Positions 25,041 to 27,232 of a DNA stretch of 64,000 nt are shown here, piece by piece (the stretch's first letter is position 1; every line of letters begins with the position of its first letter). The notes under the pieces are model-generated. The model saw only the letters and a program-made list of their open reading frames with translations, searched no databases and was not told the DNA's origin. A program made the position numbers and the translations under genes. The stretch is from Patescibacteria group bacterium (lineage in GTDB: Bacteria; Patescibacteriota; Microgenomatia; 0-14-0-10-38-17): assembly GCA_050947035.1 (NCBI GenBank), contig JBMNVW010000002.1:4820-68819 (forward strand), read 5' to 3'.

Positions 25041-27232
25041 AAAGGAGGTGATCTATCCCCACCTTCCAGTAGGGATACCTTGTTCATGTTTTTGTCCCAC
25101 TCTTTCAAGGGGCATGGACTATCTCTTCATCCTTAAATATCTTCGCTTTTCTGGGTGAGAAGATCCAATCAATTCGGCAAAATCTATATAAGATTGTTTT
25201 CTTATGTAAAATCGCCAATAATTTGGATCAACAAGTTTGCTTGGATTATGAATCCTTCCACAAACAATGTTATTCTCTTCCAAAATTTGCTTAACCTGTT
25301 TCAAATCAGTCAAATTTTTTTGAGCAAAATAGATATAATAACGAACTCTTTTGCTTTTAGATATTCCTCCTTCGGTATCAAAATAACCTCTTACATAATC
25401 GAACTTTTCCCTTTTAGAATTTAACTTAATATTTTTAAGCCAAAACTTAGAAAATTCGACTACGTAAACTTGTCTATTTTTTCCCTCTCGGTAAATCCAG
25501 GCTTTATAGCCAAGATTTTTAATACCTAAAGCAATTAAAGTGACGTATTTTTTACTCTTCTGACTAATTCGGTAGGTAAGCCTTCTTTCGGTTGCATCGT
25601 GTAATGCTCCTAAAAGATAAGACTTGGATATTTTCAGGCGCTGGCGTGTAGTCTCTACGGAGTCCTCATTATCTTTATGAGGTTCCCTCGCGGTTGCCAT
25701 ACTTGGTATTTTATAACAAAAACCAAGGTTAGGGTTCCCCGATACAGCCAGATTTTTCCAAGGAATTACTTCCTTGGGTCGCAACAATTTTACGACTTAA
25801 CGCTCATCACTAAGTTCAGCTTAGTCCCCCCTTTATAAAAAAGGAGAGGTTTCGGCTGCCCCCAGCTTTGCTCATTTGACGGGCAGTGTGTGCAAGAGGC
25901 GAGAACGTATTCACCGCGACCTGCTGATTCGCGATTACTACCAATTCCAAGTTCATGCAGGCGAATTGCAGCCTGCAATCCCCACTGAGAGAAGGTTTGA
26001 TGGGATTAGCTCCGCCTTGCGGCTTGGCAGCCCATTGTTACTTCTCATTGTAGGATGTGTGTCGCCCTGGATATAAGCACCATGCTGATTTGACGTCATC
26101 CCCACCTTCCTCCCTACCAACGGCAGGGCAGTCTTCTGTGAAAATCCAACACAGAATAAGGGTTGCGCTCGTTACCCCACTTAAGGGAACATCTCACGAC
26201 ACGAGCTGACGACAACCATGCAGTAGCTGTCCAACCTTTGCTGTATAAATACAGCCCCTTGCTCTGTTTCCAAAGCAGGAAAAGGAAGGATGTCAAACCC
26301 AGGTAAGGTTCTTCGCTTTGTATCGAATTAAACCACATGCTCCACTGGTTGTGCGCCTCCCCGCCAATTCCTTTGAGTTTCAGCCTTGCGGCCATACTCC
26401 CCAGGCGCCCTGCTTAATGGGTTACCTTCGACAGTCAGTCCGAATAAATCAAAACCGACCATCTAGCAGGGATCATTTAGGGCTAGGACTACTCGGGTCT
26501 CTAATCCGATTTGCTACCCTAGCTTTCGTCTCTCAGCGTCTCCATCGATCCAGGTGCTCGCCTTCGCCGTTGGTGTTCCTTACTGTATCAACGGATTTCA
26601 CCCCTACACAGTAAGTTCCAGCACCCCCTCTCGAGGACTAGACAAGCGGTATTATCGGCTTTTCTCCAGTTGAGCCGGAGGATTTAACCAATAACCTACT
26701 TATCCGCCTACAGACTCTTTACGCCCAGTAAATCCGGACAACGCTCGCACCCTACGTATTACCGCAGCTGCTGGCACGTAGTTAGCCGGTGCTTTTTGAC
26801 TAATAATCCAATGGATTATTAGAGAGGAGTTTACGACCCGAAGGCCTTCATCCTCCACGCGGTGTCGCTGCGTCAGGCTTTCGCCCATTGCGCAAGATTC
26901 CCGGTTGCTGCCACCCGTAGGTGTATGGACCGTATCTCAGTTCCATTCTGGGGGAACAGGCTCTCACCTCCCCTACCCGTCTTAGCCTTGGTAGGCCATT
27001 ACCCTACCAACAAGCTGATAGGCCGCAGGCCGCTCTTTTGGTGGATAGTTACATCCTTTACCCCGAAGGGACAATGCGGAATTACCTCCGATTTCTCGAA
27101 GCTATTCCCCGCCAAAAGGTACGTTCCTACGTGTTACTCAGCCGTCTGCCACTCTCGTGCATAGCACGAGCGTCCGACTTGCATGCCTAAGGCACACCGC
27201 TAGCGTTCGTCCTGAGCCAGGATCAAACTCTT
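25041..27232 (-). rRNA. rrs: 16S rRNA with an intron of about 700 bp inserted near the 3' end, in the 1492R-primer region.
   Basis: The 5' end reads AGAGTTTGATCCTGGCTCAGGACGAACGCTAGCGGTGTGCCTAAGGCATGCAAGTCG at 27232-27180 (reverse complement), and 515F/R lies at 26759-26780. The 3' end GATCACCTCCTT lies at about 25042. The GGTTACCTTGTT / ACGACTT site is split at about 25086 and 25791. Confidence 0.9.
25119..25787 (-). CDS. Intron-encoded LAGLIDADG homing endonuclease (single-motif type) inside the 16S rRNA intron.
   Basis: LAGLIDADG-like motifs (LIALGIKNLGYKAWIY and YVRGYFDTEGGIS). The ORF lies wholly inside the interruption of the 16S 3' end and on the same strand. Confidence 0.85.
   Translation of the reverse strand: MLRPKEVIPWKNLAVSGNPNLGFCYKIPSMATAREPHKDNEDSVETTRQRLKISKSYLLGALHDATERRLTYRISQKSKKYVTLIALGIKNLGYKAWIYREGKNRQVYVVEFSKFWLKNIKLNSKREKFDYVRGYFDTEGGISKSKRVRYYIYFAQKNLTDLKQVKQILEENNIVCGRIHNPSKLVDPNYWRFYIRKQSYIDFAELIGSSHPEKRRYLRMKR

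Follow-up and report, generated by a model that had tools for sequence, protein, structure and literature searches.

Insertions are frequent in the 16S ribosomal RNA (rRNA) genes of the candidate phyla radiation (CPR), and a survey of 380 such genes found them in 48% and named the recurrent sites, among them 16IS10, which holds group I introns, with insertions reported at 16S position 1498 (Tsurumaki et al., 2024, J Bacteriol, PMC11270868). In that survey the LAGLIDADG_3 family (PF14528) occurred only in 16S insertions, the sites 16IS5 and 16IS10 being common to it and LAGLIDADG_2, and 35 of its 39 open reading frames (ORFs) lay in group I introns; its proteins were treated as a single domain with "a non-domain region at the N-terminus", and no enzyme of site 1498 was characterised there, the one tested, I-ShaI, being a 23S homodimer of LAGLIDADG_1 (PMC11270868). 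As summarised in the same paper, Brown et al. (2015) found the CPR rRNA insertions absent from transcripts. In archaea, group I introns of subgroup IB4 have been described at SSU/1498 of the small-subunit (SSU) rRNA, a position then new as a group I site, and some of them carry LAGLIDADG ORFs (Nawrocki, Jones & Eddy, 2018, NAR, PMC6125680). This work examines a 64,000-nt stretch of contig JBMNVW010000002.1 (the whole stretch is called the window hereafter), wherein a single 16S rRNA gene is interrupted after the base equivalent to Escherichia coli U1498 by a group I intron carrying a LAGLIDADG gene.

Compared with 16IS10, the window element has the same host clade, gene, position 1498, group I type and Pfam family, and nothing substantive is different; the element repeats a kind already published, and near-identical copies of it are in public data. 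The descriptions diverge for the protein, which the survey takes as a single domain and for which our model indicates a two-domain monomer resembling I-DmoI. Relative to the archaeal SSU/1498 introns the insertion position is identical and the host here is bacterial, while several archaeal loci (L044, L051, L068, L070, L075 and others) share the core blocks and the guide sequence of the window intron, which could by extension be placed in subgroup IB4. The common insertion site of CPR and archaea is consistent with cross-domain spread. An earlier reading of the window, made from the sequence only, had considered intron-bearing rRNA genes a recognised CPR feature and had singled out an insertion in the 1492R primer site as notable; position 1498 is already catalogued both as 16IS10 (PMC11270868) and as archaeal SSU/1498 (PMC6125680). 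CPR rRNA genes are well documented to be laden with self-splicing introns that bear endonuclease genes; the locus adds one more case and opens no new question. Based on the findings below, we propose, with a probability of roughly 0.88, that it is a mobile group I intron that splices itself out of the 16S transcript and homes into intron-less copies of the gene.

The 16S gene lies on the minus strand at 25041-27238 and is interrupted 44 bases from its 3′ end, at 25085-25791. On the plus strand, GGGATACCTTGTT ends at 25084 and ACGACTT begins at 25792, with 707 bases in between, so that the placement between TTGTT and ACGACTT in the sequence-only reading is exact and its "about 700 bp" measures 707. 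Read in the RNA sense, the order is ...GCGUUAAGUCGU, the 707 nt, and then AACAAGGUAUCCCUACUGGAAGGUGGGGAUAGAUCACCUCCUUU, with the universal 16S terminus ...GGAUAGAUCACCUCCUUU at 25041-25056. Removing the insertion in silico (25792-27238 joined to 25041-25084) gives a 1491-nt 16S with the junction AAGTCGT/AACAAGGTA. This spliced form was the one aligned to the intronless E. coli 16S (locus L081), the unspliced gene being uninformative as MAFFT pushed the intron into the end gap; the final base of the 5′ exon equals E. coli U1498, and the spliced 3′ end, AAGTCGTAACAAGGTATCC...GATCACCTCCTTT, aligns without a gap. The alignment to an intronless 16S, which had been suggested as a check, therefore yields a bounded insertion with a contiguous 3′ end once it is taken out. 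The insertion falls in a stretch of the decoding region that is conserved and single-stranded, rather than at the tip of a helix, and the junction after U1498 lies within the 1492R target, as the earlier reading had located it. After splicing, this target differs from that of E. coli by one base (AAGTCGTAACAAGGTATCC versus ...AACC), and because the intron sits inside the primer site, the 16S of this organism is not amplifiable from DNA with 1492R.

Core elements of a group I or group II intron had been proposed as the object of an intron-fold search, and those of group I were found, both as two sub-threshold Rfam matches and as covarying helices. A permissive scan of 25030-25830, keeping matches up to E = 10, returned Intron_gpI at 25479-25801 (37.5 bits, E 6.8e-8), spanning P1-P7, and at 25096-25239 (24.6 bits, E 5e-4), spanning J8/7, P7′ and P9; the gathering cut-off of this family (RF00028) is 50 bits. 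A single guide, UUGUUGCGAC, is complementary to both exons. Its GCGAC forms P1 with GUCGU of the 5′ exon (25792-25796), placing U1498 opposite G in a U·G wobble at the 5′ splice site, and its UUGUU, directly 5′ of the P1 strand, forms P10 with AACAA of the 3′ exon (25080-25084). In the core, P3 pairs CUGGC with GCCAG (25747-25751 / 25641-25645), P4 lies at 25737-25742 / 25688-25693, P5/P5a at 25697-25734 and P6 at 25664-25682, and P7 pairs GACUA (25649-25653) with UAGUC (25117-25121). The intron ends in ...ACAUG, and its last base is G in all introns recovered.

Whether these helices are kept in homologous introns was read from loci returned by a scan with the endonuclease profile, which, with one genome per species, gave 80 loci. 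In about 70 of the 80 the endonuclease gene lies in an intron bounded AAGTCGT/...G/AACAAGGTA, with the anti-Shine-Dalgarno sequence 31 nt beyond, and so uniform a junction is therefore not chance. For covariation, 65 introns were trimmed of the ORF and aligned with MAFFT, and pairs were counted by script on a structure drawn from the window copy; P5a, inner P6 and inner P8, which aligned poorly, were excluded as evidence. All five pairs of P1, including the U·G, are kept in 65/65 introns, and those of P10 in from 31/62 to 65/65, the three nearest the splice site in 60-65/65. At single positions of P2, as many as 6 standard pair types occur. The pairs of P3 occur in 64-65/65, with exchanges of CG for UA and GC for AU, and those of P4 in 54-65/65, with exchanges CG/GC, GC/CG and UA/GC; P7 (64-65/65) is essentially invariant, with one non-pairing cell, while outer P8 (50-65/65) has compensatory exchanges and P9 multiple pair types. 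Taking all helices together, 82% of cells pair; with the 3′ partners slid by 1-3 columns the figure is 39-46%. Some of the relatives (L005, L006, L020, L026, L029 and L052) have an additional hairpin region of 35-80 nt, a P9 extension, between P9 and the 3′ splice site, which is absent from the window copy.

Three euryarchaeal 16S genes (L068:2012-3049, L070:2040-3037 and L075:604-1734) contain, at 1498, a group I intron of 233-249 nt with no ORF. These introns share the core sequence blocks of the window intron, have a 26-nt P8 hairpin where the window has the ORF-bearing loop, and score 66-70 bits against the RF00028 cut-off of 50. As ORF-less introns at the identical site pass the Rfam threshold and share the core, and as the core covaries, the group I assignment is secure: the insertion is a group I intron, neither group II nor archaeal-type. 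A group II intron had been considered and was rejected, since no group II family matched 25030-25830 up to E = 10 and the site is 1498 and not 1400, that of the LAGLIDADG-encoding CPR type; small nuclear RNA and microRNA readings were likewise rejected, as their matches were at chance level (U6atac at 23 bits, several microRNA families).

In the same three euryarchaeal loci the 16S gene is followed, 156-210 nt past its 3′ end, by an intact free-standing homologue of the endonuclease (177-227 aa), and behind this homologue no remnant of an intron core was found in L068 and L070. The arrangement resembles the "collaborative homing" of phages, to which it may be analogous, and no description of such an arrangement in archaea was found in the literature cited here.

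As to the encoded protein, the same-strand 222-aa LAGLIDADG ORF of the sequence-only reading does exist (25119-25787, opening with TTG), and its residues 129-208 match Pfam PF14528 (LAGLIDADG_3; E 7.9e-12, 45.7 bits against a cut-off of 22.5), but 193 aa is the likelier length. Translation probably starts at ATG 25700, a form favoured because gene callers chose it for the homologue P0001, which at 96% identity is the best of at least 584 homologues among public proteins; PF14528 is present in 120/120 of the homologues listed. Motif 1, YLLGALHDA, is encoded at 25593-25619 and motif 2, VRGYFDTEGG, at 25365-25394. In an alignment of 20 members the conserved motifs read YLLGALHDAT and YxRGYFDxEGG and 50 residues are invariant, all 50 of which the window copy retains with no frameshift.

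AlphaFold2, run on this 20-member alignment, gave a model with a mean predicted local distance difference test score (pLDDT) of 84.8 and a predicted template modelling score (pTM) of 0.80, in which two successive alpha-beta-beta-alpha-beta-beta units follow an unstructured stretch (residues 1-21); the elements are helix 26-35, two strands, helix 50-62 and two strands, and then helix 96-110, a strand, helix 130-142, a strand and helix 168-177. In a Foldseek comparison of this model the top 34 matches in the PDB are all chains of I-DmoI (E about 3e-9, probability 1.00, 176-192 aligned columns), followed by I-Tsp061I, WhiA and intein endonucleases. A fold comparison was needed to see this relationship because the sequence-profile search of the PDB gave only a marginal I-DmoI match (E 0.16). 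The model thus indicates a compact single-chain, two-domain LAGLIDADG enzyme, and not the one-domain homodimer that the Pfam match alone implies. I-DmoI (Desulfurococcus mobilis 23S; PDB 1b24, 2vs7) and I-Tsp061I (PDB 2dch), both enzymes of archaeal rRNA introns, match over the whole chain with a template modelling score of about 0.6 and have the same size class of ~170-190 aa and the same single-chain, two-motif architecture, whereas sequence identity is only 20-23%, the target site differs and motif 1 of the window protein, YLLGALHDAT, lacks the canonical ...GDGG ending. The motif-2 glutamate (FDTEGG) aligns with the catalytic glutamate in VAEGD of I-DmoI, and the motif-1 acid D35 (LHDAT) is invariant across the family. 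I-DmoI itself resides in an archaeal-type intron, not in a group I intron.

The gene and the ribozyme overlap closely. The P7 3′ strand includes the stop codon UAG (25119-25121), and the P8 3′ strand together with J8/7 codes for the conserved C-terminus LRMK(I/R). The P8 5′ strand supplies a start ATG, four codons ahead of YLLG, in 37/67 family members; 29/67, the window included, lack this ATG, and their frame continues open for about 26-36 codons to an ATG further upstream. The corresponding codon of the window copy, in the P8 strand (25627-25638), is ATA, and the upstream ATG (25698-25700) lies in the P5 3′ strand, so that the first ~25 codons of this frame run through P5, P4, P6, P7 and P3; the extension of ~22 residues that the upstream start adds, encoded by the ribozyme core, matches the disordered part of the AlphaFold2 model. 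Such a maintained start-codon variant might make ribosome entry and ribozyme folding mutually exclusive and so act as a switch between splicing and endonuclease expression, an idea that we regard as rather improbable; were the upstream start used, the enzyme would be produced only from unfolded RNA, either precursor or excised intron.

We therefore arrive at the following sequence of events for a self-splicing, homing group I intron, each step of which is a prediction. The 16S gene would be transcribed with the intron inside a stem-flanked pre-16S RNA, and the ribozyme would fold so that its guide UUGUUGCGAC positions GUCGU, with the U·G at the splice site, and AACAA. An external guanosine could then attack the 5′ splice site, and the freed 3′-OH of U1498 could attack behind the terminal G of the intron, whereby the exons would be ligated with an RNA junction reading AAGUCGU-AACAAGGUAUCC and the decoding-centre strand AAGUCGUAACAAGG would be restored. 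The I-DmoI-type enzyme encoded in the P8 loop would cut intron-less 16S rDNA around AAGTCGT/AACAAGGTA, the predicted cleavage target of the 193-aa protein being a duplex carrying GCGTTAAGTCGTAACAAGGTATCC, and repair from the intron-bearing copy would spread the element by homing.

Several observations weigh against this proposal. Self-splicing, exon ligation and enzyme activity are steps that we infer from the sequence. The two group I pieces of the window (37.5 and 24.6 bits) each fall short of the 50-bit gathering threshold, as the halves of the core are set apart by ~500 nt of coding sequence, and P4 has a G·G mismatch in the subclade of the window (10/65 sequences). Motif 1 of the protein (YLLGALHDAT) is atypical, D35 standing one position earlier than in what we take to be the I-DmoI motif, and because this acid appears shifted by one residue, cleavage of both strands by the predicted enzyme is not assured. 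The upstream ATG lies inside the ribozyme core, and inspection by eye gave no obvious Shine-Dalgarno sequence for it. Finally, in the closest relative among metagenome-assembled genomes (MAGs), L057 (182-893), a premature stop truncates the endonuclease gene after about 85 residues, with the intron ends and core conserved nonetheless, so that such decay does occur in the lineage of the window. Decayed endonuclease ORFs are present in several other relatives as well, which fits the usual cycle of gain, decay and loss, as is expected for genes of this kind (PMC11270868). The residual doubt thus concerns activity, namely whether splicing is autonomous or protein-assisted and whether the endonuclease is active or decaying, and not identity.

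First, the group I core may splice inefficiently by itself and rely for help on a protein, which could be a host factor or the intron's own LAGLIDADG protein in the role of a maturase. LAGLIDADG proteins can serve as maturases (PMC11270868), and with this activity on record the atypical motif 1 of the window protein could be read in the same sense; the P4 G·G mismatch of the subclade, together with a weak P5, could need stabilising, and the overlap of the ORF with P5-P8 and P7 couples RNA and protein tightly. Against this, introns lacking an ORF have survived in archaeal genes at this very site, so that the core evidently needs no internally encoded protein, a point qualified by the homologous endonuclease gene that lies near those introns, and in the window the helices of the catalytic core and both guide pairings are all intact. 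We regard a dependence on a helper as unlikely, albeit worth keeping in view.

Second, the intron could be a fixed and vertically inherited relic, which still splices and whose endonuclease, inactive or reduced to a nickase, no longer homes. The atypical motif 1 and the lost P8 ATG of the window copy would suit this explanation, as would the decayed ORFs of several relatives, the nearest MAG L057 among them, within the cycle of gain, degeneration and loss (PMC11270868). However, the window ORF is full length with every family-invariant residue kept, and most of the differences between it and the 96%-identical P0001 are conservative replacements. The upstream-ATG configuration, shared by 29/67 members, is a maintained variant and no one-off lesion, and very distant CPR lineages, as well as archaea, have this intron and enzyme at one and the same site, which suggests continuing transfer. 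A relic is hence improbable, though not negligibly so, and the mobile, self-splicing intron remains the preferred explanation.

Third, the insertion could be excised without ligation in the manner of an intervening sequence (IVS) processed by RNase III, leaving a fragmented 16S with a separate 3′ piece of 44 nt. The 23S gene of the same operon has four IVS-like insertions that are not introns, so a fragmenting type of processing may exist in this organism. In the 16S, however, the full ribozyme core, P1, P10 and the terminal G are laid out for ligation, and the site, within a conserved single-stranded part of the decoding region, is no helix tip, which makes fragmentation very unlikely; an IVS excised by RNase III was also rejected as a class for the insertion, which lies in a single-stranded stretch with a complete group I core and is not a simple hairpin at a helix tip.

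Last, mis-assembly, which the sequence-only reading had itself raised as the finding that would overturn it, was checked against four independent assemblies, in which 5′ exon, intron (705-707 nt), 3′ exon and downstream spacer follow one another colinearly with the window: L082, from an ENA biogas-fermenter metagenome (97.7% identity over 1257 nt), L083, a Logan assembly of SRR27370451 (97.0%), L084, JGI 3300077563 (94.4%), and L057, a MAG (91.7%). The 3′-exon sequence, as shown, is identical across the four. A chimera joining the 16S gene to unrelated mobile DNA, an artefact to which metagenomic rRNA regions are generally prone and for which no specific support was found here, can be dismissed with near certainty in view of these four exon-intron-exon assemblies and the about 70 further loci with the same junction.

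Table 1. Features of the 16S rRNA locus, its intron and the neighbouring rRNA genes (window coordinates; all on the minus strand).
Feature	Position	Strand	Basis or remark
16S 5′ exon, E. coli 1-1498, ending ...GCGUUAAGUCGU	25792..27238	-	Rfam SSU_rRNA_bacteria, 1316 bits; 5′ end 27238
Group I intron, 707 nt, AAAAUUGUUGCGAC...ACAUG, terminal G at 25085	25085..25791	-	Rfam Intron_gpI, covariation
16S 3′ exon, E. coli 1499-1541, AACAAGGUAUCCCUACUGGAAGGUGGGGAUAGAUCACCUCCUUU: helix 45 and anti-Shine-Dalgarno	25041..25084	-	Sequence, alignment
Internal guide UUGUUGCGAC	25778..25787	-	Pairs with both exons, counted over 65 introns
P2 hairpin CCAAGGAA-GUAA-UUCCUUGG, 8 bp, GUAA loop	25758..25777	-	Pairs kept in 54-64 of about 65
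Ribozyme core (P3, P4, P5/P5a, P6, P7 5′ strand)	25641..25751	-	
P8 stem, closing the loop that holds most of the ORF	25131..25638	-	5′ strand 25627-25638, 3′ strand 25131-25141
P7 3′ strand UAGUC (25117-25121) and P9 CCCCUU-GAAA-GAGUGGG (25096-25112)	25096..25121	-	P7 64-65/65
Predicted homing-endonuclease gene, probably 193 aa	25119..25700	-	ATG 25700; mechanical ORF from TTG 25787, 222 aa
Pre-16S processing stem, 3′ arm	24921..24952	-	Inverted repeat I1, 32 nt, 88% complementary
Pre-16S processing stem, 5′ arm	27326..27357	-	Inverted repeat I1
16S as reported by Rfam	25759-27238	-	Rfam
tRNA-Ile	24680-24754	-	ARAGORN
tRNA-Ala	23991-24067	-	ARAGORN
23S	20289-23827	-	Rfam
5S	20064-20181	-	Rfam

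With respect to the host, the spliced 16S matches the bacterial model and shares 68.8% identity with that of E. coli, while its best matches among the retrieved loci, at 76-78%, include MAGs of Chisholmbacteria (L010), Microgenomates (L047) and Shapirobacteria (L026). These matches accord with the CPR-type host of the sequence-only reading, and by similarity the organism is probably a deep-branching member of the Patescibacteria/CPR, in the Microgenomates group. Several of the records with the CPR-type intron (L001, L002, L004, L013, L021 and others) are titled "uncultured Gammaproteobacteria" or "uncultured Pseudomonadales", and yet the 16S of one of them, L021, is the closest to that of the window among the retrieved loci (78%, versus 68.8% for E. 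coli). These titles look mislabelled and were treated as unreliable, because the 16S genes of those MAGs group with CPR 16S. For gammaproteobacterial hosts, Salman and co-workers (PNAS, 2012; cited in PMC11270868 and PMC3984707) reportedly described 16S genes of Thiomargarita with self-splicing introns, some with LAGLIDADG genes, that escape standard PCR surveys.

The window holds a complete rRNA operon on the minus strand, as identified with Rfam, with two spacer tRNAs found by ARAGORN (Table 1). The full-length match of the Rfam bacterial SSU model (model 1-1533) stops 33 nt into the intron, at 25759, and misses the true 3′ exon, so that automated annotation would misplace the 3′ end of this 16S gene by about 700 nt.

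The flanking arms of the pre-16S processing stem, ggcattccgaatgtggtaggaaa at 24930-24952 and tttcctaccacattctgaatgcc at 27326-27348, pair at 22/23 positions, and their complementarity extends to the 32 nt of inverted repeat I1; the arms are roughly symmetric, about 88-89 nt beyond each gene end. Both arm sequences quoted in the sequence-only reading are thus present and intact, but the coordinates it gave for them (24934-24956 and 27316-27338) were wrong. Another inverted repeat, I3 (24971-24985 / 27384-27398), crosses the main stem and is not nested in it, and was taken as a chance or alternative pairing.

Directly after the processing stem and ahead of tRNA-Ile, a strong, two-way terminator-like hairpin at 24898-24922 has 9 pairs (7 of them G-C) and T-runs on both strands. 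Because it precedes tRNA-Ile and the rRNA and tRNA genes are all on the same strand, transcription of the 16S gene may be separate from that of tRNA-Ile, tRNA-Ala, 23S and 5S.

The 23S gene is 3539 nt long, versus 2904 in E. coli, and the extra length (~600 nt) is explained by four AT-rich insertions on the minus strand at 21438-21627, 22175-22312, 22952-23090 and 23347-23561, near E. coli positions ~274-289, ~546, ~1163-1185 and ~1712-1735. That the 23S might contain another intron or endonuclease gene was ruled out, as it gave no group I match and no endonuclease ORF (no plausible product among ORFs of at least 90 aa) and its extra length consists of these four IVS-like hairpin insertions. 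At the head of several of them stands a small GC hairpin (e.g. CTTGTCCATAGGACAAGG); short repeats of the AATTTTC type come next, with complementary repeats of the TTGGATTTTGG type on the return side, and together they look like a family of related IVS and not introns.

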